Shown here: one piece after another, positions 42,413 to 59,897 of the stretch
Layout of the letters: the number at the start of each line of letters is the position of its first letter
How positions within the stretch are numbered: the stretch's first letter is position 1
Source: Candidatus Latescibacterota bacterium
GTDB taxonomy: Bacteria; Latescibacterota; UBA2968
Length of the DNA stretch: 64,000 nt
Reading direction: 5' to 3'
NCBI GenBank assembly: GCA_965205975.1
Contig: OZ242195.1
Span: 1,056,001-1,120,000 of the forward strand
Program-made: the position numbers and the translations under genes
Notes under the pieces: model-generated
The model's database searches: none
The model's input: the letters and a program-made list of their open reading frames with translations, nothing else
What the model was told of the DNA's origin: nothing

Positions 42413-44143
42413 ATGCACAATATTCTGAAGTTGATGGGTTATATGCGGCCCTATTGGAAGCAGGCGACTATCGGCCCGTTGATGAAATTGATCGAGGTGA
42501 TGCTGGAATTGATGCAACCCTGGTTGGTGCAGCGGATTGTAGATGAGGGGATTGCCAGGGGAGATCTGGATCTGGTGATTGAGACCGGTCTGTGGATGCT
42601 CGGTCTGGCTATTGGGGGCGTTTTATTTGGTATCGGCAATGCCTGGTTTGGCGTGTGGGTGGCGCAGCGGGTGGAGACCGATGTGCGAAGTGCGCTTTTT
42701 GGCAAAATTCAGTCGCTTTCGTTTGGCAATCTGGATAAGCTGTCAACGGGGCATCTAATTACGCGGCTGACCAACGATGTGCGGCAAGTGGGAGAAGTGG
42801 CACGTTTGTTATTACGCATTCTGTCGCGTATGCCCATGTCGATGGTGGGCGGTCTCGTGATGGCGATTATAACCAGTCCTCGCCTGGGATTGATCTTTAT
42901 TGGACTGGTGCCCGTGGTTTTGGGGACTCTGATTCTGGTGTTTCGAAAAGCCAATGCGATGTTTGCTGAAGTGCAGAATCGCCTGGATCGGGTGAATCAG
43001 GTGACGCAGGAAAATCTGGCAGGCGTGCGCGTGGTGAAGGCTTTTTTGAGGGCAAATCACGAGATCGAACGGTTTGGAACGGCCAATAACAGGTTGATGG
43101 AACAGACGATTCGGGTGACGCAACTGGTGGCATTGGTGATGCCAGTTATGATGCTGATACTGAACCTGGGTGTGGTGGGAGTGATCTGGTTCGGGGGGAT
43201 TGCAGTGACCCAGGGAGGGATGAAGCTGGGCGAGATTATTGCGTTTATCAATTATCTGTTGCTTTTCTTGCAATCCCTGATGATAGGCAGTATGGTGCTT
43301 ATTCGGATGTCCCGAGCAGAGGCTTCTGCCGAGCGCATTATTGAGGTGCTGAATAGCGAGCCAGAGGTGCATGATCGGGCGGATGCAAAGCGCGATGTGG
43401 TGTTGAAGGGGCAGGTCGCGTTTGAAAATGTGACGTTTAGTTATAATGAGACGGCGGATGATCCGGTATTGCGGAATCTGAATTTTGTCGCCGAGCCGGG
43501 GCAAAAGGTGGCGATTTTGGGTTCGACAGGGGCGGGCAAATCGTCGTTGGTGAATCTTATCCCGCGGTTTTACGATGTGGATGCTGGGCGGGTGATGGTG
43601 GATGGGATGGATGTGCGGGATATGGGACAGGAGGCACTGCGACAGCAAATTGGAATGGCGCTCCAGGAGTCGGTCCTTTTTTCCGGTACTATTCGGCACA
43701 ATATTCGGTACGGGCGGCCCGATGCGACCGATGAAGAGGTCGAGGCTGCTGCCAGGGCAGCTATGGCGCACGATTTTATTGTCCAGTTTCCAGATAAGTA
43801 CGAGACGCTATTGGGCCAGCGCGGCGTGAATTTGTCGGGGGGACAGAGGCAGCGGATCGCGATAGCCCGGGCGTTGATCTCCCGCCCGAAGGTGTTGATT
43901 TTAGACGATAGTACCAGTGCGGTAGATCTGGAGACAGAGGCAAGGATTCACGATGCGCTTGAAGAGATGGTCGGGTGTACGAGTTTTCTGGTAGCGCAGC
44001 GCATCAGTACGGTGTTGCAGGCAGACAAGATTCTGGTGTTGGACGATGGGGTGCTGGTTGCCGAGGGTACGCATCAGGAGTTGATGGCGTCCAGTTCAGT
44101 ATATCAGGAGATTTACGATTCACAACTCGGAGAGGGAAACTGA
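42413..44143 (+). CDS. Heterodimeric ABC exporter subunit (degenerate Walker B/H-switch)
   Basis: GSTGAGKS, LSGGQ, LILDDS and AQR motifs. Confidence 0.92.
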   Translation: MHNILKLMGYMRPYWKQATIGPLMKLIEVMLELMQPWLVQRIVDEGIARGDLDLVIETGLWMLGLAIGGVLFGIGNAWFGVWVAQRVETDVRSALFGKIQSLSFGNLDKLSTGHLITRLTNDVRQVGEVARLLLRILSRMPMSMVGGLVMAIITSPRLGLIFIGLVPVVLGTLILVFRKANAMFAEVQNRLDRVNQVTQENLAGVRVVKAFLRANHEIERFGTANNRLMEQTIRVTQLVALVMPVMMLILNLGVVGVIWFGGIAVTQGGMKLGEIIAFINYLLLFLQSLMIGSMVLIRMSRAEASAERIIEVLNSEPEVHDRADAKRDVVLKGQVAFENVTFSYNETADDPVLRNLNFVAEPGQKVAILGSTGAGKSSLVNLIPRFYDVDAGRVMVDGMDVRDMGQEALRQQIGMALQESVLFSGTIRHNIRYGRPDATDEEVEAAARAAMAHDFIVQFPDKYETLLGQRGVNLSGGQRQRIAIARALISRPKVLILDDSTSAVDLETEARIHDALEEMVGCTSFLVAQRISTVLQADKILVLDDGVLVAEGTHQELMASSSVYQEIYDSQLGEGN

Positions 44144-44144
44144 T

Positions 44145-45992
44145 ATGGCGGAAGTTGATCGACAGCGTGACGGTGAACCGCGAGAACCTGGCGGAATGAT
44201 GGGGGGGCGCCGTCGAATGATGATGATGGGAGACGATGAGCGGGCGCGGGATTTTCGGGGGACTGCCCGCCGTTTGATGGGGTATATGAGGCGCTACAGG
44301 GGGACATTGGTCGGGGTGGTGGGGCTGGTGGTGGTCTCAACGGGGTTAGAGGTGGCAGGGCCGTATTTGATGGGGCGTGCGATTGATGAATATATTGTCG
44401 ATAACGACTTGCCTGGTCTTTTTCAAATTGCCCTGTTGATGGCGGGGGTGTATGTGGCCCTGGCACTGACGACCTGGCTTCAGTCTTTTGTGATGGCGCG
44501 AGTATCTCAAAATGCTGTGAGGGATTTGCGTCAGGATATTTTTAACCGCTTGCAGGTGCTTCCGCTGCGGTTTTTTGATCGGCGTGCCAGTGGCGATCTC
44601 ATGAGCCGGGTGACGAATGATGTGGATAATATCAGCAGTGTGTTGTCGGAGAGCGTGACGCAGTTGATTAACAGCGTGTTGACTCTGGTGGGCGTGTCGG
44701 CCATGATGTTGTGGATGGATTGGCCGTTGGCGTTGATTAGCTTGCTTACCTTTCCACTGATGGCGTCTTTGACAGGGCAGGTCGCCAAACGCGCGCGGCG
44801 GGGATTTCGCGAGCAGCAGGCGGCACTGGGTGCGCTCAATGGGATGATTGAAGAGACGATTGCGGCAGAACAGGTGGTGAAAGCTTATGGACGCGAGCAG
44901 GCGTCGATTGAGGCATTTGAAAAGTTCAATAACAGGTTGAAGTATGCCGGTACGCGCGCGCAGTTTTTCGGGACACTGATGCCGCCTTTGACCTTTTTTG
45001 TGAACAATATGGGCCTGGTGATTGTGGCTTTTGCTGGTGGCTATATGGCTGTTCAGGGCGATGTGACAATCGGTGTGATTGCCGCTTTTATCAGCTATGT
45101 GCGGCAGTTTGGACGACCTTTGGGCCAGGTTGCCAATTTGTACAATTCGATACAGTCGGCACTGGCCGGAGCAGAGCGGGTTTTTGAGACTATTGACGAG
45201 TTTCCCGAAGTGCCTGACATGCCAGATTCGGTCGCGTTAGAACGGGTTCGGGGCGATGTGATTTTCGATCGGGTGTGTTTTGGTTATGAAAAAGATGTGC
45301 CAGTGCTCAAAGAGGTGAGTTTGCAGGCCAGACCGGGAGAGAAGATTGCGCTGGTAGGACCGACGGGAGCGGGCAAGACGACCATTGTGAATTTGCTGAC
45401 CCGGTTCTACGATATCGATAGTGGGGCGATCTATATCGACGGCCATGATATTCGGCAGGTGAAACGGAATGCTCTGCGCCAGCAACTGGGCATTGTGTTG
45501 CAGGATACTTTTTTGTTGTCTGATACTGTGCGGGAAAATATCCGTTATGGACGGTTAGATGCTTTGGATGAGGAGGTGGTTGATGCGGCCAAATTGGCCA
45601 ATGCAGATCCCTTTATTCACCGGTTGCCCCAGGGATATGATACGGTGCTTTCGGAACGCGGCGGCAATTTGAGCCAGGGACAGCGGCAGATGCTGGCTAT
45701 TGCGAGAGCCGCGCTGGCCGATCCGTCGATTCTCATTTTAGATGAGGCGACTTCCAGCGTGGATACGCGGACGGAAATGCGGATTCAACAGGCGCTTTTA
45801 AGGCTGATGGAGGGGCGCACGAGCTTTATTATTGCCCACCGATTGAGCACGATTCGCAATGTGGATGAAATTCTGGTCATTGACGACGGGCAGATTATTG
45901 AACGCGGGTCGCATCGGGCGTTGTTGGATGCTGAGGGATTTTATTACAATTTGTATATGAGCCAGTTCAAGGGAGAGGTCACTTTTGTTTAA
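44145..45992 (+). CDS. Heterodimeric ABC exporter partner subunit
   Basis: GPTGAGKT, LSQGQ, LILDEA and AHR motifs, the TM287/288-type pattern. Confidence 0.92.
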   Translation: MAEVDRQRDGEPREPGGMMGGRRRMMMMGDDERARDFRGTARRLMGYMRRYRGTLVGVVGLVVVSTGLEVAGPYLMGRAIDEYIVDNDLPGLFQIALLMAGVYVALALTTWLQSFVMARVSQNAVRDLRQDIFNRLQVLPLRFFDRRASGDLMSRVTNDVDNISSVLSESVTQLINSVLTLVGVSAMMLWMDWPLALISLLTFPLMASLTGQVAKRARRGFREQQAALGALNGMIEETIAAEQVVKAYGREQASIEAFEKFNNRLKYAGTRAQFFGTLMPPLTFFVNNMGLVIVAFAGGYMAVQGDVTIGVIAAFISYVRQFGRPLGQVANLYNSIQSALAGAERVFETIDEFPEVPDMPDSVALERVRGDVIFDRVCFGYEKDVPVLKEVSLQARPGEKIALVGPTGAGKTTIVNLLTRFYDIDSGAIYIDGHDIRQVKRNALRQQLGIVLQDTFLLSDTVRENIRYGRLDALDEEVVDAAKLANADPFIHRLPQGYDTVLSERGGNLSQGQRQMLAIARAALADPSILILDEATSSVDTRTEMRIQQALLRLMEGRTSFIIAHRLSTIRNVDEILVIDDGQIIERGSHRALLDAEGFYYNLYMSQFKGEVTFV

Positions 45993-46004
45993 AGGAGAGG
46001 AAAA

Positions 46005-46736
46005 ATGTCCTATCGACTAACACCAGAAGATGTGCGGTTCTTTCACGACGAGGGGTATCTCGGGCCATATACGATGCATTCGCCAGAAGAAATGGATCGT
46101 ATTCGGCCTGTTGTTGAGCGTGAAATTTTTGAAGCCGAAGGCCCGTTTCACGTCAATCGGAAAAAATCGCGGCATCTCGATAGTCGAACGATCTACGATC
46201 TGTGTACACATCCGACCATTATGGATCGGATAGAAGGCATTCTCGGTCCGGATATCGTGCTCTGGCAATCCAACTTTTTTAACAAACCCCCCGGTGCCAA
46301 AGAAATTCCCTGGCATCAGGATATGAATTTCTGGTCCACCGAAATAGAACCGGGGATTAATGTTTCTGCCTGGTTAGCCATTGACGATACAGATGTCACC
46401 AACAGTTGTGTTCAACTCATGCCGGGGTCACACCGAAAAATGATTCCGCACATTAAAGCAACACCTGAACAGGCTTTTCGCGAACAGGGCGACCCCGATC
46501 ACATCGGTGTTGACCCGGATCGCGTTGTGAAGATGAAAATGAAAGCCGGGCAATTTTTCCTATTCACCGAGCGCATGCTCCACTACTCAGCAGCCAATAC
46601 GTCTGATCGCCGACGTCTGGGATTGGCCATACGCATTACCATTCCGATTGTGCGCTGTTACAAAAGGTATCACCTTCATCTGGTGCGCGGTGAGGATCGG
46701 ATGGGATTTAATGTGTATGGAGATGCACCTGAATGA
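46005..46736 (+). CDS. PhyH family Fe(II)/2OG dioxygenase
   Basis: PWHQD, PGSH and LHYSAANTSDRRR motifs. Confidence 0.9.
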   Translation: MSYRLTPEDVRFFHDEGYLGPYTMHSPEEMDRIRPVVEREIFEAEGPFHVNRKKSRHLDSRTIYDLCTHPTIMDRIEGILGPDIVLWQSNFFNKPPGAKEIPWHQDMNFWSTEIEPGINVSAWLAIDDTDVTNSCVQLMPGSHRKMIPHIKATPEQAFREQGDPDHIGVDPDRVVKMKMKAGQFFLFTERMLHYSAANTSDRRRLGLAIRITIPIVRCYKRYHLHLVRGEDRMGFNVYGDAPE

Positions 46737-46777
46737 TCGGGATTACTAAACGACAATATCGAAAACGGTGAAAACTT

Positions 46778-47785
46778 ATGAAAAAAGCCATACTCCACGG
46801 TCCGCGAGACCTTCGCATTGAAGAGCATCCGCTTGATACGAGCGCGCTTGGCGCTGATGAGGTCTGGGTTGAAACGCAGATTAGCGCGTTTAAGATCGGA
46901 ACAGATCGGGGCAATTTTGAAGGTGCTGATCGCGTACCGGGGGCGCCGGATTATCCGCGATTTGTTGGCGATAGCAATCTGGGTATTGTTCGCGGTATTG
47001 GTGCCGAGGTCACGCGTTTTGAGGTCGGTGATCGCGTTGTGGCGACTCAGCCTCACCAATCTGAATACATCATAAACCAGTTTGGTGACATCTTCAAAAT
47101 ACCCCCTGATGCCGATGATGAAGATGGTGTGTATGCACACCTCTATGCACTCAGCGCACATTGTTATCACAAAGCATTATTTAGACCCGGGGAAAATGTC
47201 GCCGTTGTTGGCCTGGGTGTTCTCGGTCTGGGAGCAGTCGCTTTGGGTCCTTTGTTTGGTGCCCGCGTCGTTGGGCTTGGCAATAGTTCCATCAGGTTAG
47301 ATATGGCAAAGCGCATGGGTGCTCACGCGGCTTATTTATCAGATGATCCAGATATTGAAGAGAAACTCGACGCTTTTACAAGCGGAAGAGGCATTGATCT
47401 GGTTATTCTTACGGCGAATCCCTGGCCGGCTTTCAGAACATCTGTTGAAATTGTGCGGCCAAATGGTCGGGTCTCTATTGTCAGCCTTATGGGACGGGGT
47501 GAACCACCGCTCGATTTTAACCCTCTGGCAATGGAATGGTTTTACGCCAAGGGGATATCTCTGATTGCCGTGCATGGAGAAGATGCCCAATTATATCCGC
47601 ATGCCGATGCTTCGGGCCATTTGGGTCATTGCGATCACGTTCTTTCTCTTATGGCAGAAAAAAAACTTCAGCCCAGCCGTCTAATTACGCACCGTTTGCA
47701 TTATACGGAAATGGTTCAGGCTTATGAAATGGCATACACGCGTGAAAAATCTATGCTGGGTGTCATTTTTAATTGGCGGGAATAG
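46778..47785 (+). CDS. Medium-chain dehydrogenase/reductase without canonical Zn ligands
   Basis: GroES-like N-terminus and GLGVLG motif. KIGTD replaces CGSD and there is no GHE. Confidence 0.8.
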   Translation: MKKAILHGPRDLRIEEHPLDTSALGADEVWVETQISAFKIGTDRGNFEGADRVPGAPDYPRFVGDSNLGIVRGIGAEVTRFEVGDRVVATQPHQSEYIINQFGDIFKIPPDADDEDGVYAHLYALSAHCYHKALFRPGENVAVVGLGVLGLGAVALGPLFGARVVGLGNSSIRLDMAKRMGAHAAYLSDDPDIEEKLDAFTSGRGIDLVILTANPWPAFRTSVEIVRPNGRVSIVSLMGRGEPPLDFNPLAMEWFYAKGISLIAVHGEDAQLYPHADASGHLGHCDHVLSLMAEKKLQPSRLITHRLHYTEMVQAYEMAYTREKSMLGVIFNWRE

Positions 47786-47788
47786 GCT

Positions 47789-49120
47789 ATGTCACACGAT
47801 GTCACAAAATCGTTAGAGTTGTATAAAAAAGCGGGAGAACGCATTCCGGGGTGGACACAGCTCATCAGCCGAAGAGCTGACCGGGTTGCAAATGGCGTTA
47901 GTCCTCTCTATGTCGCGCGATCAAAAGGCGCGCGATTTGTAGATGTTGATGGCAACGAGTATATCGATTGGATCCGCGCTTTGGGCGCTATTATTCTGGG
48001 CTATGCAGATCCCGTTGTCGATGGTGCTGTTAAAAAGCAGATTGATCTGGGTAGCCTGCATTCCATGAATAGCGCGCTCGAAATTGAGCTGGCAGATGAG
48101 TTAATCAATACCATACCGAGTGCTGAAATGGTGCGCTATACAAAGGGAGGAGGGGAAGCCTGTGCTGTGGCTGCTCGCATTACTCGGGGCGCGACAAATC
48201 GGGACATTATTCTTTTTTGCGGTTATCACGGATGGCACGATTGGTATCAATCGGCAAATTATCTCGTTGATCCCGAGAGCGGAGAGTATCCCTTTGCCGG
48301 TATTGAGCCAATTGGTGTGCCGCGTGCGCTGGCGGGAACGGCGATTCCATTTACCTATGGTGATCTCGACATGCTCGGGCGTTTGCTGACCGAATATCAG
48401 GGCGAGGTTGCCGCAGTTATGATGGAGCCGGCTCGATCCGAGTGGCCCGAAGATGGGTACCTCGAAGGAGTCAAAGAACTCGCCCGCAGGCATGGCGCTT
48501 TGCTCATATTCGACGAAGTCTCCTGTGGTTGGCGTGAGTCTCTGGGTGGTATGCAGAAATATTTGGGTGTTACGCCAGATATCACGGTGATTGCCAAAGG
48601 CATGTCCAATGGGTATCCGATGGGGGCTGTTGTTGGATCGTGCGAGGCGATGGAACCCGCCAAGGCGATGTTTATTTCCAGTTCGTATTGGAGCGATAAT
48701 ATCGGGCCTATTGCGTCGCTGACCACCATCCGAGAACTCAAAAGGCGAGATAGCGAGACACATCTGGCCGAAATGGGCCAAAAAGTGGCCGGGGCAATTG
48801 ACGAAGCGGTCTTATCTGCTGGCCTTTCGGGATCGTGTAAGGGATTTCCCGCAACGCCCAATCTGGTGCTCGATTTGCCCGATGAGGCATTGAGCGGCAA
48901 GGTTCAGACGCTTTTTATTCAGGAGATGGCTCGCCGGGGGGTGCATTGTTACATGGGTTTTGGGCCTACGCTTGCACATACCGAAGAGGATGTGCGTATT
49001 ACTGCTGACGCGGTTGAAGCCTCTTTGCGCGTCGTAAAGCAGGGGCTTGAAAATGATTCTATCGACGATCTGCTCATTTGCGATCTGCACTCGGAACCCT
49101 TCCGCCGGATTGTTCGATAA
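47789..49120 (+). CDS. Class III aminotransferase (glutamate-1-semialdehyde aminomutase-like)
   Basis: DVDGNEYID, YHGWHDW, LIFDEV and AKGMSNGYP motifs. Confidence 0.88.
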   Translation: MSHDVTKSLELYKKAGERIPGWTQLISRRADRVANGVSPLYVARSKGARFVDVDGNEYIDWIRALGAIILGYADPVVDGAVKKQIDLGSLHSMNSALEIELADELINTIPSAEMVRYTKGGGEACAVAARITRGATNRDIILFCGYHGWHDWYQSANYLVDPESGEYPFAGIEPIGVPRALAGTAIPFTYGDLDMLGRLLTEYQGEVAAVMMEPARSEWPEDGYLEGVKELARRHGALLIFDEVSCGWRESLGGMQKYLGVTPDITVIAKGMSNGYPMGAVVGSCEAMEPAKAMFISSSYWSDNIGPIASLTTIRELKRRDSETHLAEMGQKVAGAIDEAVLSAGLSGSCKGFPATPNLVLDLPDEALSGKVQTLFIQEMARRGVHCYMGFGPTLAHTEEDVRITADAVEASLRVVKQGLENDSIDDLLICDLHSEPFRRIVR

Positions 49121-49131
49121 AGGAGAAAAAA

Positions 49132-51429
49132 ATGGCATTGACAATTGACGAAAAGCCCGCACAGCCGGGGGAATGGGGATTTAGACCGGAAAATGTGACG
49201 ACAGAGGAGACACCACCGGCATTTGTGTGGCGCCCGCAGGAGAATGCTGAGAGCTATGATATCCAGTGTGCGCGGGGCGCGGATTTTTCAAAGGTCGCGT
49301 ACGAGGCACGGAGATTGAACTATACGGTTCACCGCCCGGCAGAGGTGTTTGAATCGGGACAGTGGTATTGGCGGTTCCGATTTGTCGATGGGTGTGGACA
49401 GGTGTCGGATTGGAGTTCGGGGCGCGCTTTTGTGATTGCCCAGAATGCAAAAGCATTGCCATTGCCCAAACGCAGTGAATTGATTGGGCGCATCCCCAAG
49501 AGCCATCCGCGCCTGTTTGTGCGCCCAGAGGACCTGGATGGCTTGCGCGCACGAGCGCGAGGAGATCTGAAACCGATTTACGACGATCTGGTCGCAACGT
49601 GCGAAGATATCCTGGCCGATATGCCATCTACCGAAGAACCACCCCTGTATCCCGAGGGGACTGTTGTTCTGAGTGAGGAATGGCGGGGGATCTGGTGGGG
49701 AAACCGGATGTACACGATTCGCGTGTTAAACAGCGCGGCCACGCTGGCTTTTACGCGGCTTTTGGGTGGGCAAGATCACTATGGCGAGAAGGCTAAAGAA
49801 CTGCTGCTGGCGTGTGCCAAATGGGATCCCCTGGGGGCGACCGGGTATCGGTATAATGACGAAGCGGGTATGCCGTATAATTACTATTTTTGCCGCACCT
49901 ATACGTTTGTGAACGATTTGTTGAGCGAAGAAGAGCGCGATATATGCCGGGCGGTGATGAAGGTGCAGGGGCAGGAGATGTACGACCATCTGGCGACTGA
50001 GATGCGCTATTTGTGGCACCCTTATGGGAGTCATGCTGGTCGTGCCTGGCATTTTTTGGGTGAGATTGGTGTGGCATTTTTGGATGAGATTCCCGAAGCG
50101 GAGGAGTGGGTGTGGTTCGCGATGAATGTGTTTGGTGCGGTGTATCCCGCGTGGTGCGATGAAGATGGCGGCTGGCACCAGGGATTGCAATACTGGGAGA
50201 GTTATGTTCAGCGCTTTACGTGGTGGGCAGATATCATGCAGGCGGCAATGGGGATTGATGCGTATTGCAAACCGTATTTTGCACGCGCTGGCGATTATCC
50301 GATGTATTTTCAGCCTCCAGGTACGCGCGGGGGTGGCGTGGGCGATTTGACGACGACGAGAACATCGGATCAGAATTGCGATTTGATGCACACTCTGGCG
50401 GCTCAGGCGCGCAATCCATATTGGAAGTGGTATGTGGATATGCACCCGCAGAAAGAGAAAGAGGGTACGAGAGCGCGCAGGTTGGATGCCGTGGGTGCCG
50501 GGCGGTCGCTCTATATTGATTTTGTGCGGGGGGCATTGCCAGAAGTGCGCGGGGAAGCGCCGGTGGATTTGCCTGCTTCAAAATGTTTTCGCGGTACGGG
50601 GTTGGTGGCGATGAATTCGGATTTGACGGATGGGAAAAACAATGTGTCGGTCATTTTTAAGAGCAGTCCATTGGGGTCACAGAGTCACGGTTTTGACGCG
50701 CAAAATTCATTTTCGCTATTTGCTTTTGGCGAGCGGTTGTTGATTCACACGGGCCAGCGCGATATTCACGGCAGCGACCACCACAAGAATTGGATGCACC
50801 ATACAAGATCAACCAATTGCATTGGGGTAAATGGCGAGAGTCAGTTGTGCAATCACGCGGCGGCAACGGGTGAAATTCTGGATTTTCAAACGTCGGATGT
50901 ATGTGATTATGTGGCTGGCGAAGCCGCCCCGGCTTATGGGGGGAAGCTGAAAAAATTTACGCGGCAGATTTTGTTTGCCAAACCCGATGCGGTGGTGATT
51001 TACGATACGGTGGTGGCACCTGAGGCTTCGATATTTCAGTATTATTTGCACGCTGAAACGGAGATGGCTATCGAGGGTCAGACACTAAAAATTACAACGG
51101 GTGATGCGGGCTGTGTGGTGTCTCTGCTGCGTCCTGAAAACTTGAAAATCAGTCAGACAGATCAATTTGATCCACCGCCGAGAGAACGCGTTCAACTCAG
51201 AGAGTATCACGTGACGGCAGAGACACCGATACCGCAGGAAGAGACCACATTTATTGCGGTATTGCGACCGCACAGGACGGGGGCTGTGCCCAAAGGTGAT
51301 CCCGTTTTGATGGATGATGGAACGCTAATGGTACCATTGCCCGATGGCGAGTTGAAGGTTTGGGTGGGCGAGACATTGCGCGCTGAGAAAAGGGATCAAA
51401 AAGGTGTTGTGGTGGCAACTTTGCCTTGA
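49132..51429 (+). CDS. Heparinase II/III-like polysaccharide lyase (DUF4962-type)
   Basis: HPRLF, GGWHQGLQYW, SHGFDAQNSF and H..WMHHTRSTN motifs. AAGGAG RBS. Confidence 0.8.
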   Translation: MALTIDEKPAQPGEWGFRPENVTTEETPPAFVWRPQENAESYDIQCARGADFSKVAYEARRLNYTVHRPAEVFESGQWYWRFRFVDGCGQVSDWSSGRAFVIAQNAKALPLPKRSELIGRIPKSHPRLFVRPEDLDGLRARARGDLKPIYDDLVATCEDILADMPSTEEPPLYPEGTVVLSEEWRGIWWGNRMYTIRVLNSAATLAFTRLLGGQDHYGEKAKELLLACAKWDPLGATGYRYNDEAGMPYNYYFCRTYTFVNDLLSEEERDICRAVMKVQGQEMYDHLATEMRYLWHPYGSHAGRAWHFLGEIGVAFLDEIPEAEEWVWFAMNVFGAVYPAWCDEDGGWHQGLQYWESYVQRFTWWADIMQAAMGIDAYCKPYFARAGDYPMYFQPPGTRGGGVGDLTTTRTSDQNCDLMHTLAAQARNPYWKWYVDMHPQKEKEGTRARRLDAVGAGRSLYIDFVRGALPEVRGEAPVDLPASKCFRGTGLVAMNSDLTDGKNNVSVIFKSSPLGSQSHGFDAQNSFSLFAFGERLLIHTGQRDIHGSDHHKNWMHHTRSTNCIGVNGESQLCNHAAATGEILDFQTSDVCDYVAGEAAPAYGGKLKKFTRQILFAKPDAVVIYDTVVAPEASIFQYYLHAETEMAIEGQTLKITTGDAGCVVSLLRPENLKISQTDQFDPPPRERVQLREYHVTAETPIPQEETTFIAVLRPHRTGAVPKGDPVLMDDGTLMVPLPDGELKVWVGETLRAEKRDQKGVVVATLP

Positions 51430-51464
51430 GGTGAATCCTTGAACACTGTTAATGGAGGTGTGGC

Positions 51465-52745
51465 ATGATGCTCAAAGAGATGACAAATTCCGCTTCGGCG
51501 TTGACGGACGAGACATTTGAGGCGTTGTTCGAAGCCTGCCGGCCCCAAAAGGAAGGGTGGACAGATATTCCCTGGATCGGAGAACTCTGGAAGGGGCGAC
51601 AGAAGGCGGCGCGCGAGGAGAAACCACTGTTCATCTGGGCGATGAATGGTCATCCTCTGGGGTGTACGTGAAATAACGGGGTTACGGGCCGTGCGCTCGT
51701 TTTTTCAGATCCGCGCGTGATTGAGTTTTTGAATGAACGGTTTATCCCTGTGGCTGTGAACAATACCCGATTGCAGCGACAGGCCGATGATGAGGGTCGG
51801 TTTTTGCGCCTGATCTCCTGGCAAGGGCGGTACGGGTATTCTTTTGAGGAAGCACGGGCCAGATTGGAGGATATCGATCACGGGCTGAATCATCAGGGTT
51901 TATATGCAGTGACAACAGAGGGGGAAGTGTTGGGTAGTCGCAACAGGCTATTTCCGGGTGGCAAGCTTCCTGTACATGGTGTTGGTAGCGATCCAGACCA
52001 ATTTTTGTGGATGTTGAGACGGGCGCTGGAGAACTGGGAGAACCGCAAGACCCAGCGCGAGACATTGGAAATCGAAGATTTGGCGTACCGGGATCCCACA
52101 TTTAGCTGGATGGGGTATCCTGAAGAGGGATTGGTTTTACATCTGGGCGTTCGGGACCTGCCCCGGGAGGTGGATACGCGGCCTTCGGGAATGAAGCGAG
52201 AGGCGCACAATCAGGATTACGTCTGGTTTCGACGGGAAGAGGTGCTGTCTATGATTCCACTGGATGCAGTTGCGGGCGATGTTATTCCCGTGCCCGATGG
52301 GCTGGTCAGACGGCTGGTGCGTTATCATCTGGCGGATTATGTCCGAGGGGAAACGTCTTCGTGGCCATCCGAGGCGATCCGAGATGCGTCTATGACGTTG
52401 ACGGTGACTGAGGAGACACCGGAATGGGTTAATTTAAGGCTTTCCGGATCCGCGCAGTTGCTCTCGGAGGGGAGTTGGTACGAGGGCGTGTGCCAGGAGC
52501 GAGGGCTGGATGCATCGCTGTTGGGTTATCTCCGTTTTGATCGACGGACGGAACAGTTCGTGAGATTCGATGTTGTGGCGGTGGGATCGAGATGGGGTGG
52601 CACGGACTACAACGTACGGCAGGATGATCTGGAGCCTGCACCTATCGGGATTGCGATGACGATTGCTGGGAGGGAGGCGAGGGATCGCACAGCTCCGCAT
52701 GCGTGCCAGAGTCGAGGTGGTCTGGAAAGGTATTTTAATGCGTGA
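51465..52745 (+). CDS. Putative selenoprotein, thioredoxin-like fold with CxU motif (TGA 51669-51671 read as Sec); 426 aa
   Basis: ORFs 51465-51671 and 51717-52745 share a frame with no other stop between them. Read-through gives KPLFIWAMNGHPLGCT-U-NNGVTGRALVFSDPRVIEFLNERFIPVAV. GGAGG RBS only before 51465. Confidence 0.8.
51675..51701 (+). promoter_or_regulatory. Candidate bacterial SECIS hairpin
   Basis: AACGGG/CUCGUU lower stem, G-C pair, bulged U, UACG/CGUG upper stem and a G-first apical loop about 16 nt after the UGA. Confidence 0.6.
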
Positions 52746-52828
52746 TTTGATAGTTGGGATGTGTTTTATTTAAAAAAACTCGGCTCTTGCCGAGTTTTTT
52801 GTTTTTTCTCCACGATTTTTTATCTGAG

Positions 52829-52900: not shown

Positions 52901-54469
52901 ATGACCAGATATACACATAAATCGCCTGCTTCTATTGACCGAAGGGATTTTATCCACCTGGCCGGTCTTGGCGTAATGGGCGCGCTTGTTCTGGGGCTGG
53001 ATGTTCCTGTTGGCGCGCAAAAACAGCCCAATTTTATTTTTATGGTTTCTGACGATCAGGGGTGGGATGGCCTTTCGGTGCAGATGCACGATGCGATTGC
53101 TGGCTCAAAGAGCGACTTCTATCTGACCCCCAATATCGAGAAACTGGCACAGCAGGGCATGCGCTTTTCGGCTGCTTATTCGCCTGCTCCTGTTTGTGCG
53201 CCAACCCGATGTAGCTTTCAAACGGGTAAGAGTCCAGCAAAGAACCACTGGACAACGGTAGCCCCTCGTCAGGGTGCCACAGAGAACCATAAGCTCATCA
53301 CACCGATACATGGCAGAAATCTTGTCAGGAGTGAGACGACGATTGCCGAAGTGTTGCAACAGGCAGGTTATGCCACGGCGCATTACGGCAAATGGCATCT
53401 GGGTGGTGGCGGACCGGGCAATCACGGTTATGATGTCCACGATGGCAATACGGGGAATCAGGATGCGGCGCCTCATGTCGATCCCAATCCGGTGGATATT
53501 TTTGGCATGTCCCGGCGTGCGAATGCGTTTATGGAAGAGAATACCGAAGCTGGCAAGCCATTCTTTATCCAGTTGTCTTATTATGCGCTGCATTATCCCC
53601 GGAATGCGCTGGAAAGCACGCGGCAGGCATACCTCAATCGACCGAGAGGGCGCGTCCATCAAAATGTCAATCGCGCGGCGATTACCGAAGACCTGGATAC
53701 GGGGGTGGGTATGATCATGGACCAGGTTGAGCAACTCGGCATTGGTGACCACACCTATCTGATTTACATGTCTGATAATGGTGCTGTGGGAGGCGGTCTG
53801 GGTGTGTTGCGCGGGTCGAAGGGTTCTCTGTGGGAGGGTGGTATTCGCGTGCCGTTGATCATCCAGGGACCAGGTATAGAGCCAAATGCAGTTTGTCACG
53901 AACGCGTGGTCGGTGTTGATCTGTTTCCCACGCTTTGCGAACTGGGCGGTGTAAGTCAGCCGTTGCCATCGGGTATTGAGGGGGGGAGTATCGCGTCGTT
54001 ATTATCTGGTGGGTCGGGTGCGGTTGTGAGACCTCGTGAGGAATTGGTCTTTCATTTTCCGCATTATCAAAGTGAGGATGATGGACCGCATTCGGCAATT
54101 ATATTGGACGATTACAAGCTGATCAAGTTTTACGAGACCGATGATGTGCGATTGTATGATTTGGTCAATGATATTGGGGAACAAAATGATTTGTCCAAAG
54201 ATATGGGGGAAGAAGCGATGCGCCTGCGCGAACGACTCGAACAGTATCTCGAGTCTGTTGACGCTCAGATGCCAGTGCCCAATCCGAATTATACGACAGG
54301 CAAGTCGAGTGATTTTAATGGCGATGGGGAAATCGATTTTGAGGATTTTCTCGAATTTGCCAGAGCTTATGGGTCGGAGGACGCCCGGTTTGATCTGGAC
54401 AATAGCGGGCAGGTGGATTTTGCCGATTTTTTGAGGTTTATACAAGATTTTAGCAGCGCGGGGAATTAG
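52901..54469 (+). CDS. Tat-exported sulfatase with C-terminal EF-hand/dockerin-like module
   Basis: DRRDFI Tat motif, SDD, CAPTR, GKWH, SDNG. C-terminal DFNGDGEIDFEDF/DLDNSGQVDFADF. Confidence 0.9.
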   Translation: MTRYTHKSPASIDRRDFIHLAGLGVMGALVLGLDVPVGAQKQPNFIFMVSDDQGWDGLSVQMHDAIAGSKSDFYLTPNIEKLAQQGMRFSAAYSPAPVCAPTRCSFQTGKSPAKNHWTTVAPRQGATENHKLITPIHGRNLVRSETTIAEVLQQAGYATAHYGKWHLGGGGPGNHGYDVHDGNTGNQDAAPHVDPNPVDIFGMSRRANAFMEENTEAGKPFFIQLSYYALHYPRNALESTRQAYLNRPRGRVHQNVNRAAITEDLDTGVGMIMDQVEQLGIGDHTYLIYMSDNGAVGGGLGVLRGSKGSLWEGGIRVPLIIQGPGIEPNAVCHERVVGVDLFPTLCELGGVSQPLPSGIEGGSIASLLSGGSGAVVRPREELVFHFPHYQSEDDGPHSAIILDDYKLIKFYETDDVRLYDLVNDIGEQNDLSKDMGEEAMRLRERLEQYLESVDAQMPVPNPNYTTGKSSDFNGDGEIDFEDFLEFARAYGSEDARFDLDNSGQVDFADFLRFIQDFSSAGN

Positions 54470-54499
54470 CAAATAATTGTTTGTATAGGAGATTATATC

Positions 54500-55723
54500 A
54501 TGCGGTTTGTTGGGTTTGCGATGGTTGTGTGTTTGCTATGCGCTTTGAACACGAATGCCTACAGTGCGGATTCCTTATCCGTCGAGGCGGGCTATGGTCG
54601 GATTGTGCTTCCGGGGTCTCAGGTGGACCTCAAGGCCACACTTATCAATGGTCCGGGTGCCCAGGTTGTGTGGCGGCAAGTGCGCGGGACAGCGGCGACG
54701 ATCCGTTCACCAGACGCGCTGCAAACGACTGTGAGCGTTCCTGCCGATGTCAGCAGTGCGGAGACATTGCTATTTGAAGTGCGTGCTGAGATGGAATCGG
54801 GTCAACAAGCATCGGATACCGTTTGGATCGAGGTGTACGTACCTGAACAGAATTCCGCCGATCTGACGCTTATGGCAGATTTTTCGCCGAAAGTTGGCTG
54901 GGAGTGCAACCAGGATCCAGTAGAGGTTCCAGAGGTTCAGACCCGCGTTCTGGAAAATACCATCGAATACACGACCAATGGTATTCCCACCCATGCGACG
55001 GGAATATTTCCCAATCGGGGAAATCCGAACATGATTTGGTCGGTGCCGCAAACATGGCGAATTCCCCGCTATCCCGAAAAGACGGATACGCCCACTGAAA
55101 TGGCTACATTTGGCATTACGCTCGAGGGCATCAAACTCGAACCCGGCACTGCGGAGAGTTATCGCAATCAGCGGCAGTGGAATTACGAGGCACTGACCCC
55201 GGGTATGGCGCACCGATTGAGCGGCAATGCGCGGTTCGAATGGCTGGGTACAGATTGCAATAACGCACACGTTCAGCCAACGGGCATTTACCACTACCAC
55301 GGCGTGCCGCATGGCCTGGTCAATGAACTCGCCAGTGAAGCAGAGGGCCAGGCGATGGTATTGGTCGGGTATGCTGCCGATGGTTTTCCAGTCTATGTCG
55401 CCAGCGGACCCAATGCTCCTGAGGGGAGTTGGGAATTGCGCTCAGGCACGCGAGAAAGCGGGCCCGGGGGGGAATACGACGGCACATTTCGGGAAGATTG
55501 GCAATTTGTTGAGGGATCGGGTGACCTCGATCAATGCAATGGTCGGTTTGGGGTTACACCCGAGTTTTCGAAAGGAATATATCATTACTATCTTACCGAC
55601 GACTATCCGTACATGCCCCGCTGTGTCTGGGGGACGCCCGATCCTTCGTTCCGTCAACGCCGGGCTGGTGGACGACCTCCCGGCGGCCCGGGTTTCAGAA
55701 GGCGTCCACCGCGGCGGCGCTGA
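54500..55723 (+). CDS. Secreted YHYH-domain protein with Ig/PKD-like domain
   Basis: Signal peptide, AHVQPTGIYHYHG, GYAADGFP, DLDQCNGR and YHYY motifs. Confidence 0.85.
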   Translation: MRFVGFAMVVCLLCALNTNAYSADSLSVEAGYGRIVLPGSQVDLKATLINGPGAQVVWRQVRGTAATIRSPDALQTTVSVPADVSSAETLLFEVRAEMESGQQASDTVWIEVYVPEQNSADLTLMADFSPKVGWECNQDPVEVPEVQTRVLENTIEYTTNGIPTHATGIFPNRGNPNMIWSVPQTWRIPRYPEKTDTPTEMATFGITLEGIKLEPGTAESYRNQRQWNYEALTPGMAHRLSGNARFEWLGTDCNNAHVQPTGIYHYHGVPHGLVNELASEAEGQAMVLVGYAADGFPVYVASGPNAPEGSWELRSGTRESGPGGEYDGTFREDWQFVEGSGDLDQCNGRFGVTPEFSKGIYHYYLTDDYPYMPRCVWGTPDPSFRQRRAGGRPPGGPGFRRRPPRRR

Positions 55724-55757
55724 AACGATAGGGTATGAAGATTATAAGAAGAGGCTA

Positions 55758-57164
55758 ATGATGAGGCGAAAATTGAGGATGTTCAGATTGGTTTTTTGCC
55801 TGATGAGTGTGTTGTGTACCAGTTATGCAGAAGGGCACATGCTCTACAGCGATGAGAGTGATGTGACGGATTTCAATGGCGACGGAAAAACGGATTTCGA
55901 TGATTTTATTTTGTTCGTGGCCGCATTTGATTCACAACAGGTGCCGTTCGATCTAAATGGGAATGGTCTGGTAGATTTTCCCGATTTTCTGATATTTGTC
56001 GCCCAATTTGGTCAAACGTCTCCGCACGAAACGCCAGATACCTTATCCGTCGAGGCGGGCTATGGTCGGATTGTTCTTCCGGGTACACAGGTGCAACTCA
56101 ACGCCACGCTTAATGGTTCGGGTGCTCAGATTGCGTGGCGGCAAGTGGGCGGCATCGTGGCGGAGATTCGTTCACCAAACGCGCTCCAGCCGATTGTTAG
56201 CGTTCCCGCTATGGTCGGCCAGCCGGAGACCTTGCTGTTTGAAGTGCGTGCCGAAAAGGGTTCGGGGCAACAAGACTCGGATATCGTTTGGGTCGAGGCG
56301 TACGTGCCGCAACAGGATGTCACAGATTTGACGCTTGTGGCTGATTTTTCGCCGAGAAATGGTTGGGAGTGTAACCGCGATCCCGTCGCGGTTCCCGAGG
56401 TGCATACCCGCGTTCTGGATACGGTGATTGAATATACTACCAATGGCATTCCCGCCCATGCCACGGGACATTTTCCCAATCGGGGAAATCCAAATACGAT
56501 AGCCCCGGTGACGCAAACCTGGCGGATTCCCCGCTATCCCGAAAAGACGGATACACCTACTGATATGGCTACATTTGGCATCACGCTGGACGGTATCAAA
56601 CTCGAGCGCGATACCGCCGAGAGTTATCGCAACCAACGGCAGTGGAGTTACGAGGCACTGACCCCGGGTATGGCGCGCCGATTGAGCGGCAATGCGCGGT
56701 TCGAATGGCTGGGGACAGATTGCAATAACGCGCACGTTCAGCCAACTGGTGTGTACCACTACCACGGCGTGCCGCACGGCCTGGTCAATGAACTCGCCAG
56801 TGAGGCAGAGGGCCAGGCGATGGTATTGGTCGGATATGCTGCCGATGGTTTTCCATTTTATGTCGCCCTCGGACCCGATGCGCCCGAGGGTAGTTGGGAA
56901 TTGCGCCAGGGTACGCGAGAAAGCGCGCCGGGAGGGGCTTATGACGGCACGTTTCGGGAAGATTGGCGATATGTCGGGGGATCGGGCGACCTGGATCAGT
57001 GCAATGGTCGGTTCGGGGTGACGCCCGAGTTTCCGGAAGGGATCTACCATTATTATCTGACCGAGGATTACCCGTACATACCTCGCTGTGTCTGGGGGAC
57101 GCCCGATTCTTCGTTTCGGCGACGTCGGGCTGGTGGCCCACCTCCCGGTGGTCCAGGAGGTTGA
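55758..57164 (+). CDS. Secreted EF-hand/dockerin-like plus PKD-like plus YHYH protein (paralog of 54500)
   Basis: Start MMRRKLR at 55758 with GAGG RBS. DFNGDGKTDFDDF and YHYHG motifs. Confidence 0.85.
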   Translation: MMRRKLRMFRLVFCLMSVLCTSYAEGHMLYSDESDVTDFNGDGKTDFDDFILFVAAFDSQQVPFDLNGNGLVDFPDFLIFVAQFGQTSPHETPDTLSVEAGYGRIVLPGTQVQLNATLNGSGAQIAWRQVGGIVAEIRSPNALQPIVSVPAMVGQPETLLFEVRAEKGSGQQDSDIVWVEAYVPQQDVTDLTLVADFSPRNGWECNRDPVAVPEVHTRVLDTVIEYTTNGIPAHATGHFPNRGNPNTIAPVTQTWRIPRYPEKTDTPTDMATFGITLDGIKLERDTAESYRNQRQWSYEALTPGMARRLSGNARFEWLGTDCNNAHVQPTGVYHYHGVPHGLVNELASEAEGQAMVLVGYAADGFPFYVALGPDAPEGSWELRQGTRESAPGGAYDGTFREDWRYVGGSGDLDQCNGRFGVTPEFPEGIYHYYLTEDYPYIPRCVWGTPDSSFRRRRAGGPPPGGPGG

Positions 57165-57188
57165 CGAAGTCCATCGCTACACATTCGA

Positions 57189-57227
57189 GGGCGAGCAGTT
57201 GTAGGGACGATGCCTTTGTGCTCGCCC
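57189..57227. repeat. Intergenic hairpin containing a degenerate GTAG REP-like sequence
   Basis: GGGCGAGCA...TGCTCGCCC stem enclosing GTAGGGACGA. Confidence 0.4.
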
Positions 57228-57281
57228 ATCGGATGATCACATAACTTGATCGGGTATATCTGCGCGGAGGAGACAGACATC

Positions 57282-58439
57282 ATGTTTTTTAAATTATTGA
57301 AATCAAAATGGGTGCTGGGTGCGGTCTTCGCTTTATTTTGTATTTTTAGCCCAATCACTTTGAAAGCGTCACTGCCCGATTTTGATGGCGATGGCAAGGT
57401 CGATTTTTCCGATTTTCTACTTTTTGTAGCTGTATTTGGGCAATCGGCAGTTGGGCAAAATGCGATTTACGATCTGGACACAAGTGGAACAGTCGATTTT
57501 GGAGATTTTTTAATTTTTGCTACTGCATTTGGACAACCCGTCTCTGATCCTATTCGCGGTGTTAGCACTCAAGGATTTGCAACGCAAACAATTGCCAATT
57601 TGCTCGATTGTCCCGGGGGGCGTATAAGTCGTGTGGGGACAATTACATCTGACGATGGCAATGTGTGGATTATGCCTGCCGAGACGCAATACACAACCGC
57701 GAGACATGCATCGGATATGTATAACCAATGCACAGGTGTTTTCACTTCCAATAGCAGTGCTTTCAATTTGTCGGCTGTGCCAGTTGTAGAGATCGATCAA
57801 GACGGTGAGACGATTACGGGATATATCTTTGCTGACAATTACTTTGAATTGTATGTGAACGGTATCTTGATCGCGGTTGATGCAGTTCCGTTCACCCCGT
57901 TTAATTCGAGCATGGTTCGGTTTAAGGTTAAGCGGCCATTTACGATTGCAATGAAGTTGGTTGATTGGGAAGAGAATTTGGGGCTTGGTACAGAAGCTAA
58001 TCGCAATTTTTTACATCATCCTGGAGATGGTGGTTTGGTAGCGAGTTTTCACGATGCCAATGGAAATACTGTTGCAATTACAAATGATCAATGGAAAGCG
58101 CAGACCTTCTATATTGCACCCATTAGAGATTTGAGCTGTATTGTCGAGAGGGAAACCGAGCATTTGTCCGGCGACTGTGACACGCGTGGTACAAATGATG
58201 GCAGTCAATTTTACGCAATGCACTATTCCGTCCCATCTAACTGGTCTGAAAGCGACTTTGATGATTCGGCCTGGCCACGGGCATATACTTATACAAATGC
58301 GACAGTTGGCGTGAACAATAAACCCGCATATACAAATTTTACGGATCTATTTGATGATCCTGAGCACGATGCACAATTTATCTGGTCGTCGAATCTCATT
58401 TTGGACAATGAAGTGATTGTGCGATATACCGTAAAGTAG
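57282..58439 (+). CDS. Secreted EF-hand/dockerin-like plus beta-sandwich hypothetical protein
   Basis: Signal peptide, DFDGDGKVDFSDF, ADNYFELYVNG and FDDSAWP motifs. Confidence 0.75.
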   Translation: MFFKLLKSKWVLGAVFALFCIFSPITLKASLPDFDGDGKVDFSDFLLFVAVFGQSAVGQNAIYDLDTSGTVDFGDFLIFATAFGQPVSDPIRGVSTQGFATQTIANLLDCPGGRISRVGTITSDDGNVWIMPAETQYTTARHASDMYNQCTGVFTSNSSAFNLSAVPVVEIDQDGETITGYIFADNYFELYVNGILIAVDAVPFTPFNSSMVRFKVKRPFTIAMKLVDWEENLGLGTEANRNFLHHPGDGGLVASFHDANGNTVAITNDQWKAQTFYIAPIRDLSCIVERETEHLSGDCDTRGTNDGSQFYAMHYSVPSNWSESDFDDSAWPRAYTYTNATVGVNNKPAYTNFTDLFDDPEHDAQFIWSSNLILDNEVIVRYTVK

Positions 58440-58469
58440 TGTTATGCTATGGTGAGAGGAATTGGCCCA

Positions 58470-59897
58470 ATGAAGCGTAGAGAGTTTCTCGGTGTCGTCG
58501 GTGCTGGTGTATGTGGGGTGGCGGTGGCTAATGCGTTTGGTCAAGTTACTTCTAAGCGTCCCAAACAACCTAATTTTATTTTTATGGTTTCTGACGATCA
58601 GGGGTGGGATGGCCTTTCGGTGCAGATGCACGATGCAGTTGCTGACTCAAAGAGCGACTTTTATCAGACCCCTAATCTCGAAAAATTGGCACAACAAGGC
58701 ATGCGTTTTTCGGCTGCTTATTCGCCTTCGCCTGTATGTTCGCCCACGCGGTGCAGTCTTCAAACGGGCAAGAGTCCGGCGCAGAACCACTGGACAAAAG
58801 CATCTCCTATCATGACCGCTGCAGATGGCTATAAACTCATCCCTCCTATGCATGGCAAAAATCTCTCCAATGGTGAGACGACGATTGCTGAGATGTTGAA
58901 ACAGGCTGGTTATACCACAGCGCATTATGGCAAATGGCATCTCGGTGGTGGCGGACCGGGACGTCACGGTTATGACGTACACGATGGAAATACGGGCAAC
59001 GGGAATGCGGCTCCTTTTGTCGATCCCAATCCGGTAGATATTTTCGGTATGTCCAGACGTGCCAATGCGTTTATGGAGGAGAATACAAAAGCTGGCAAGC
59101 CGTTTTTTATTCAGTTGTCTTATTATGCCTTGCATTATCCCCAGAATGCGCTGGCGAGTACGCGGCAGGCATACGAAAATCGGTTGACAGGGCACAACTA
59201 TCGGGAGATCAACCGTGCGGCGATTACCGAAGACCTGGATACGGGTGTGGGTATGATTATGGATCAAGTTGAGAAACTCGGTATTGGAGATCACACGTAT
59301 CTGATTTACATGTCAGATAATGGAGCGAGTGGAAGAGGTCGGGGTGTGTTGCGTGGGTCAAAGGGTTCTCTGTGGGAGGGTGGTATTCGCGTGCCATTGA
59401 TTATCCAGGGACCTGGTATAGAGCCAAATACGTTTTGTCACGAGCGGGTGGTCGGCTTTGATTTGTTTCCCACGCTTTGCGAATTGGGCGGTGTGAGCCA
59501 GCCGTTGCCATCAGGTATTGAGGGCGGTAGCATCACGTCGTTATTATCAGGTGGTAAGGGCGTGGTTGAGAGACCGCGTGAGGAACTTGTGTTTCATTTT
59601 CCACATTATCAAAGCGGGGATGGACCGCATTCGGCAATCATGTTGGGCGATTACAAGCTGATTAAACTTTATGAGACCGATGAAGTGCGCCTGTTTGATC
59701 TGAGTAAGGATATAGGTGAGGAGAATGATCTGGCAGGTCGCAAACCTGAGGTTGTTGAGAAATTGCACGATCAACTGAATGAATATTTAGCATCCGTTGA
59801 TGCCCAAATGCCCCAGCCCAATCCGTATTACGATCCGAGTTGGCCGGTCGGTGGGCGAAGGGGGAGAAATAATCGGAGGAGAAGGAATCAGAGATGA
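58470..59897 (+). CDS. Tat-exported sulfatase (paralog of 52901)
   Basis: MKRREFL Tat motif, CSPTR, GKWH and SDNG. Long near-identical DNA stretches shared with the 52901 gene. Confidence 0.92.
   Translation: MKRREFLGVVGAGVCGVAVANAFGQVTSKRPKQPNFIFMVSDDQGWDGLSVQMHDAVADSKSDFYQTPNLEKLAQQGMRFSAAYSPSPVCSPTRCSLQTGKSPAQNHWTKASPIMTAADGYKLIPPMHGKNLSNGETTIAEMLKQAGYTTAHYGKWHLGGGGPGRHGYDVHDGNTGNGNAAPFVDPNPVDIFGMSRRANAFMEENTKAGKPFFIQLSYYALHYPQNALASTRQAYENRLTGHNYREINRAAITEDLDTGVGMIMDQVEKLGIGDHTYLIYMSDNGASGRGRGVLRGSKGSLWEGGIRVPLIIQGPGIEPNTFCHERVVGFDLFPTLCELGGVSQPLPSGIEGGSITSLLSGGKGVVERPREELVFHFPHYQSGDGPHSAIMLGDYKLIKLYETDEVRLFDLSKDIGEENDLAGRKPEVVEKLHDQLNEYLASVDAQMPQPNPYYDPSWPVGGRRGRNNRRRRNQR

Follow-up and report, generated by a model that had tools for sequence, protein, structure and literature searches.

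A hidden selenoprotein gene of Candidatus Latescibacterota and its probable kinship with selenoprotein N

In a 64,000-nucleotide stretch of a Candidatus Latescibacterota genome, here called the window, two open reading frames (ORFs) follow each other in the same frame of the plus strand, a 68-codon ORF at positions 51465 to 51671 and a 342-codon ORF at 51717 to 52745 that starts from the GTG at 51717. Does the TGA between them end one gene, or does it encode selenocysteine (Sec) inside a single one? We conclude that the two "hypothetical" ORFs are almost certainly one gene whose internal TGA codes for Sec, and we have very little doubt that this is a real, hidden selenoprotein gene.

An earlier note, made from the sequence of the window, had read the 68-residue ORF as ending in GHPLGCT-TGA and continuing through 15 open codons into the 342-residue ORF, whose GTG lacks a ribosome-binding site. 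Both statements were confirmed. The 68-residue ORF ends in ...MNGHPLGCT-TGA, the 15 codons at 51672 to 51716 contain no stop, and reading the TGA as Sec gives a complete gene of 426 codons plus a stop (51465 to 52745, plus strand; ORF list and translation), the final stop also being TGA. The sole internal TGA is codon 69 (51669 to 51671), in the context M-N-G-H-P-L-G-C-T-U-N-N-G. A Shine-Dalgarno-like GGAGGT is seen at 51454 to 51459, ahead of the first ATG (51465/51468), and the GTG at 51717 has no such run. The gene is present in a single copy in the source genome.

The TGA is conserved among relatives. A family match was found in 42 of 61 related genomes, with exactly one TGA at 46 of the 49 places listed, and the remaining three places do not span the Sec site. 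Thirty relative loci were fetched, and column 69 is TGA in every one of the 29 that reach across it. At least 119 loci were retrieved with the DNA pattern W-A-M-[ND]-G-[HN]-P-x-G-C, whose end lies two codons short of the TGA site; among the matches listed, TGA is at the site in 119 of 119, and the downstream frame fits the family profile in 118. At least seven phylum labels are represented, and the titles, given for 80 loci, include Planctomycetota, Verrucomicrobiota, Latescibacterota, Chloroflexota, Poribacteria, Omnitrophota, and Gemmatimonas; Candidatus Latescibacterota is the label of two titled loci (L090 and L118) that share the post-TGA peptide of the window gene. Synonymous variation is seen in the linker codons, with all four Gly codons used at Gly72. 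A second sample supplied a contig that bridges the TGA site and differs by one letter, which lies elsewhere. Contigs of four RNA runs from three studies, which cannot show transcription or its level, also bridge the site, with no difference listed at codon 69. On the evidence of the relatives, the pattern loci, and the bridging contigs, the TGA is neither chance nor error, and a read error, which the earlier note had named as a possible refutation, is ruled out. In the copy of a Poribacteria-labelled genome (L160 in G111), one analysis showed additional in-frame TGA codons after the Sec site, although another counted a single TGA; this could be a low-quality or decaying copy or reflect a code issue.

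The family comprises 1,739 protein representatives at 50% identity (E value up to 0.001) and is nearly everywhere recorded as a pair of hypothetical fragments, as the earlier note had foreseen in stating that standard pipelines would miss the protein. Among the best 150 of the 1,739 representatives, 74 start at query positions 70 to 89, the pattern that truncation of the genes at the TGA should produce, and 18 span the Sec site. The column holds Cys in 8 of these 18, Ser in 3, Asp in 2, Ala in 2, and Gly, Arg, and Asn in one each. The expectation that homologues would keep TGA or Cys at this column, with both flanks conserved, is thus supported by the TGA counts given above and by the eight Cys forms. 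In the Ser/Thr kinases P0006, P0028, P0041, P0042, and P0128, the whole two-domain module described below is C-terminal and carries Cys or a non-redox residue at the Sec column.

The Sec machinery for which the earlier note had proposed a check was identified in the source genome. selA (582 bits; cut-off, 268), selB (388; cut-off, 242), and selD (371; cut-off, 125) all score over their cut-offs, selD itself containing one TGA, and a tRNA-Sec(UCA) is the sole UCA-anticodon tRNA found. Among ordinary stops TGA is used most often, ending 938 of 2,317 long frames, so the code has not changed genome-wide. In other genomes selA alone of the sel genes was tested, and of the first 50 among the 80 titled host genomes, 45 have it. 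Among 161 sampled Planctomycetota genomes, 49 have the family (E value up to 1e-40) and 120 have selA, which is present in 48 of 49 family-positive and 72 of 112 family-negative genomes (Fisher p 9e-7, a value that is overstated, as kin are not independent, and that comes from a survey in which 11 candidates per genome were scored). One TGA, its position not checked, is carried by 63 of the 67 places in this sample. The sole family genome without a selA match (G375) has a locus (L229) without an intact in-frame N-terminal half, and none of the 41 selA-negative sampled genomes has a TGA-bearing member. A selA match in another genome (G085:C26:86621-87922) also contains one TGA.

A putative selenocysteine insertion sequence (SECIS) follows the TGA. 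This SECIS-type hairpin (51684 to 51700, plus strand) has a 6-pair stem and a 5-nucleotide loop, which starts 18 nucleotides past the TGA and has G and then U at its second and third positions. The loop also encodes the conserved Arg76, which is therefore constrained twice (CGT in 114 of 136 sequences), and from +15 to +27 after the TGA the third codon positions stay fixed. In 58 distinct sequences, obtained from 147 loci by near-identity reduction, 89.0% of the cells are paired, compared with 73.8 ± 1.4 in shuffles and 27 to 40% in slid-register controls; the covariation is 0.565 (0.286 when shuffled), a score reached by none of 500 shuffles, and two-sided, compensatory changes occur at all six stem pairs. 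The 2026 inventory of selenoprotein families (PMC13188914, section 5) gives a bacterial SECIS consensus with a loop of 3 to 9 nucleotides, a G in the first two loop positions, and a distance of 16 to 37 nucleotides from the UGA, and the window hairpin agrees with all three. The in-frame hairpin after the UGA, 5-nucleotide loop, 6-pair stem, loop G-U, and 18-nucleotide spacing are shared with SelB/SECIS-dependent UGA recoding as set out there. Two other post-TGA hairpins were rejected for their poorer fit.

The predicted model, with Cys in place of Sec, consists of a thioredoxin-7-like domain followed by a beta-rich domain. The first, of the Thioredoxin-7/DUF255 type, covers about residues 28 to 196 (51546 to 52052), and the second about residues 220 to 401 (52122 to 52667); the downstream ORF modelled without an alignment had a pLDDT (predicted local distance difference test) score of 39.7. 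In the model, the predicted Sec caps and opens helix 70-78, after strand 1 of the thioredoxin fold, and it aligns with the first, attacking Cys of CxxC, and Gly72 with the second. In thioredoxin terms the motif is therefore U-x-x-G, and Cys67 (51663 to 51665), two residues ahead of the Sec, is an extra upstream residue. The Thioredoxin_7/DUF255-like layout with TGA at the redox site, which the earlier note had proposed, is borne out by this predicted model and the alignment. Compared with Thioredoxin_7, DUF255, DsbD-gamma, DsbH, and AGR2-3 folds (PF13899 and PF03190; PDB 3f9u, 2lst, 3ira, and 3ph9), the window protein lacks CxxC and has an active-site loop five residues longer and an extra beta domain; close folds include AGR2/AGR3 and UAS domains. 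The window protein had no Pfam match, the gathering thresholds of Thioredoxin_7 and Thioredox_DsbH not being reached, and Pfam matches were weak in 2 to 3 of 37 family members (E values, 0.02 to 0.03). PDB sequence searches gave weak thioredoxin-like matches, with no chain of selenoprotein N (SELENON) in sequence or fold searches, and a viral fold library gave nothing at E values up to 0.001. Further TGA-bearing paralogues were seen in two genomes (L167, L168, L169, L170, L171, L172, and L175 in G096 and G112, with up to seven in G096); their motifs include E-T-U, R-T-U-G-A-C, F-C-U, and F-A-U, and L170 and L172 have the thioredoxin domain with no beta-domain match.

The family occurs in about a third of the sampled Planctomycetota genomes and is also found in Latescibacterota, Verrucomicrobiota, and Chloroflexota; in some cases several paralogues are present. 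It is large and uncatalogued, without an entry in Pfam, NCBIfam, or the accessible part of the inventory of 119 families (PMC13188914). No NCBIfam (June 2026) or Pfam family exceeded its cut-off. The inventory, in which the families of Haft and Tolstoy 2025 appear, shows no SELENON-like entry in the part available, and none of its entries with an NCBIfam or Pfam model matches; those that are CDD-only, PANTHER-only, or model-less lie outside this comparison. Its CxU entries (rhodanese form 3, UshA-like, ferredoxin-thioredoxin reductase, and thioredoxin-like Sec.1) share C-x-U with the window protein, so that the motif is uncommon and not new, but the protein gave no match to the NCBIfam or Pfam models of these entries. 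VPGUxxT proteins (NF041382/NF041383, OS_HP5) are likewise thioredoxin-fold selenoproteins with Sec near the N terminus, and they match residues 34 to 104 weakly (19.5 bits against a cut-off of 275). However, the window motif is PLGCTU and not VPGU, and there is no match in the C-terminal domain; the two models match weakly in 3 and 2 of 37 family members. Literature searches found no account of the family or of bacterial SELENON relatives. The family is not described in the accessible parts of 10.1101/2022.07.06.499078, PMC12013277, and PMC13326102, and PMC12839072, as far as available, places SELENON orthologues in vertebrates and some invertebrates, with bacteria unmentioned. PMC4807772 lists, in Table S9, split genes of a planctomycete, one hypothetical and two thioredoxin-like, that might be members. 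Eight "selenoprotein N" matches in the accessible part of BSepDB were rejected, being the words "selenoprotein name".

The earlier note had likened the Sec region to the SCUGSG region of eukaryotic SELENON. A link was found, and it is remote. The thioredoxin profiles of the window family and of SELENON-type proteins of Poribacteria match at an hhalign probability of 98 (E value, 1e-13); the animal SELENON sequences compared end at the Sec and cover this domain only in part. SELENON and its Poribacteria homologues share with the window protein a thioredoxin-7-like domain, Sec at the same place, and Gly three and Arg seven residues past the Sec, and probably the same beta domain. In 139 of 151 genomes of the Poribacteria-labelled phylum (that of L100), the family profile gave weak thioredoxin-domain matches, up to 12 per genome and mostly with one TGA, and in the proteins of 19 of 22 fetched loci the beta domain precedes a thioredoxin domain that has Cys and Sec side by side. 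One such protein, L195, retrieves P0359 and P0360, which have a membrane-like segment and end in W-G-A-L-D-D-Q-S-C; the P0360 cluster contains SEPN1 of Bugula neritina, and L195 aligns with P0360 in the same domain order (BLASTP, 1e-21 over 279 columns). Thesis work on a SelN homologue of Poribacteria reportedly exists, and no paper combining both terms was found. For the natural Cys homologue P0116, the Atlas ranks first a cluster that is 98% eukaryotic and bears the name "Selenoprotein N" (0.91; 196 of 256 features), on a scale on which shuffled proteins reach 0.9 in 4 to 10 of 100 cases. Genomes of the Poribacteria phylum carry up to 10 to 12 TGA-bearing SELENON-type genes each, often clustered (L186-L207, G150-G251), some of them fused to extracytoplasmic function (ECF)-sigma domains or lengthened by repeated beta-rich domains.

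Comparisons of the beta domain point to the same link, through intermediate families. The family's C-terminal profile matches the SELENON-type N-terminal beta profile with an E value of 7e-4, or 1.4e-4 with animal rows (102 columns), and the crossed domain pairings give 0.11 and 0.36. The best bridge to the SELENON-type proteins is a sister subfamily (L173/L208, L209, L210, and L233-L263), which a survey of 301 genomes from one phylum detected in just one. It has the thioredoxin domain first, the motif R-C-U-G-G, and the same beta domain, with TGA in 26 of 27 parsed loci (6 of 33 were not parsed). Its 17-sequence beta profile matches the window family at a probability of 99.1 and the SELENON-type proteins at 94.7 to 95.1 (E values, 3-6e-8), and in its ranking the window protein comes at the top and 138 of 161 SELENON-type rows precede the first of ~3,950 decoys. 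On these profile comparisons, the window family is probably a domain-swapped relative of SELENON, remotely homologous through intermediate families. The C-terminal domain, described earlier as large and unknown, is large and has no Pfam or NCBIfam match, but it probably has a counterpart in the beta domain that precedes the thioredoxin domain of SELENON.

The window protein is not a SELENON orthologue, since its thioredoxin domain comes first with C-T-U, whereas SELENON-type proteins have the beta domain first and adjacent Cys-Sec, and closer homologues of that order exist in Poribacteria. In addition to the reversed order and the C-x-U, it differs from SELENON in having its SECIS inside the coding frame and in lacking an EF-hand (Pfam) and a membrane anchor; EF-hand matches were found in P0359. 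In a tree of 29 thioredoxin domains the deep nodes are weak (29/87 support), so neither the direction of the domain swap nor its donor is assignable. SELENON probably belongs, as a single branch, to a large and predominantly bacterial superfamily of selenoproteins, whose core of a Sec-thioredoxin and a beta domain with an undescribed fold occurs in both orders, and there is a good chance that the window gene is the thioredoxin-first, soluble, anchor-free form of the SELENON catalytic core, hidden from gene callers.

How would such a protein be made and act? Sec insertion by SelB/SECIS recoding of the Escherichia coli type is an established mechanism. We favor, as reasonably probable, a reading in which the in-frame UGA is decoded as Sec through the conserved hairpin and the product is a selenol oxidoreductase with the SELENON domains in reversed order. 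SelB, bound to the hairpin, would bring Sec-tRNA to codon 69, as in the E. coli-type mechanism. Sec69 would then attack a disulfide or an oxidized thiol of a protein partner, and the bond would be resolved by Cys67, through a selenenylsulfide, or by an outside reductant, one of which is needed because the usual second Cys is Gly72; the beta domain may select the partner. A hydrophobic N-terminal segment is present in 61 of 72 other loci and in none of 36 Latescibacterota-like loci, and no signal-peptide-like or hydrophobic segment was found in the window protein (hydropathy heuristic). Most copies outside Latescibacterota would thus act outside the cytoplasm and the window copy within it. The function is presumably that of a selenol redox enzyme or switch.

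Several observations weigh against this reading. In 10 of the 18 spanning homologues, neither Cys nor Sec is at the column, and Cys67 is absent from the TGA-bearing paralogues L167, L169, and L171; redox chemistry and the resolving role are therefore not universal. The hairpin, with its loop at +19 to +23, was the best fit of three candidates picked on the same sequences. Alone it has -6.5 to -7.0 kcal/mol, slightly weaker than the consensus limit of -7.5 given in PMC13188914; the minimum-energy fold of this region in the window gene is a different pairing (z, -1.52; -13.6 for the 40- to 45-nucleotide region), and Rfam gave no match to SECIS or any other family. An early stop (within 53 to 182 codons) occurs in 7 of the 119 pattern loci, three of which run on in another frame, and the 30th relative locus (L028, from a genome of the same genus, G010) covers residues 199 to 426 only, with no N-terminal half. 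The Atlas matches listed for the C-terminal part of P0012 are unnamed clusters, with no Selenoprotein N among them, and a deeper, 200-sequence family profile matched the SELENON-type beta domain with an E value of only 0.011. The two animal sequences alone gave no significant beta-domain match (ranks 402 to 1096); they carry an insertion of ~30 residues in this region. There is also no conserved neighborhood to suggest a substrate, the largest flanking-protein cluster comprising 12 of ~110 loci.

These points bear differently on the alternatives. That the locus is two separate genes, a pseudogene, or a sequencing error is hardly credible: a few loci are broken or partial, but the same codon, frame, and conserved linker recur across at least seven phylum labels, the Cys homologues are uninterrupted, and a stop here would cut the modelled thioredoxin fold after its first strand. 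It is very improbable that the UGA is decoded as Cys or Trp or serves as a regulated stop, the hairpin then signaling read-through or termination. The hairpin and its T-run score as terminator-like in the window and the database homologue P0153 has Trp at the column; however, the T-run is not conserved in relatives, and the tRNA-Sec as the only UCA-anticodon tRNA and the absence of TGA-bearing members from the selA-negative genomes sampled both speak for Sec. It is doubtful that the thioredoxin domain alone is SELENON related and that the C-terminal matches merely reflect a common beta-meander pattern. The nonsignificant animal-only comparisons would fit this, as would PDB matches that are generic barrels and one beta-rich control that scored 28 to 29 (E value, ~1e-3) over 32 to 33 columns with two profiles. 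On the other hand, the same register of 92 to 107 columns recurs across comparisons, 72 unrelated family profiles reached at most 17 to 22 and 30 to 40 block shuffles at most 19 to 21 against 34 to 43 observed, and the beta-rich control scored 12 against the sister-subfamily bridge profile.

The main rival is a sensor, in which the selenoprotein would sense redox state or ligands and not be a turnover enzyme, Sec would serve as a switch or bind a metal, and the two-domain unit would pass the signal on to signaling partners; we consider it possible but unlikely. AGR2/AGR3 and UAS domains, which act largely through binding, are among the close folds. A fused Ser/Thr kinase domain precedes the module in 5 of the 18 spanning homologues, SELENON-type proteins of Poribacteria occur fused to ECF-sigma domains, and the redox residue is missing from the 10 homologues noted above. 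Cys-Sec motifs have also been discussed as metal ligands in 10.1101/2022.07.06.499078. Against a sensor, the free-standing forms keep the TGA almost always (in all pattern loci among the matches listed and in 63 of 67 Planctomycetota places, position not checked), and the Sec is at the classical attacking position, both of which favor the selenol oxidoreductase.

With the family stored as hypothetical fragments and lacking a Pfam or NCBIfam model, the selenoproteomes of its host phyla are undercounted. Loss of SELENON causes human myopathy, and no SELENON structure was found in the PDB searches. If the swapped-domain homology is true, SELENON would gain a deep family of bacterial relatives, among them small, soluble proteins and their natural Cys variants, which would be easy to express, crystallize, and assay, opening the enzyme chemistry and the role of the second domain to study.

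Upstream of the gene, on the same strand (42413 to 51429), are genes for two ABC (ATP-binding cassette) transporter subunits, a PhyH-type dioxygenase, a zinc-type dehydrogenase, a class III aminotransferase, and a DUF4962/heparinase II/III-like protein. The PhyH, dehydrogenase, aminotransferase, and heparinase-like neighbors were rejected as functional context, as they are not conserved beside the gene in relatives. An intrinsic-terminator-like hairpin lies 3' of the gene (52773 to 52800, plus strand; pattern match only). Farther downstream (52901 to 59897) are two similar sulfatases and proteins with dockerin- or EF-hand-like repeats, and an unidentified domain pair is present in two copies, at 54500 to 55723 and within 55227 to 57164.
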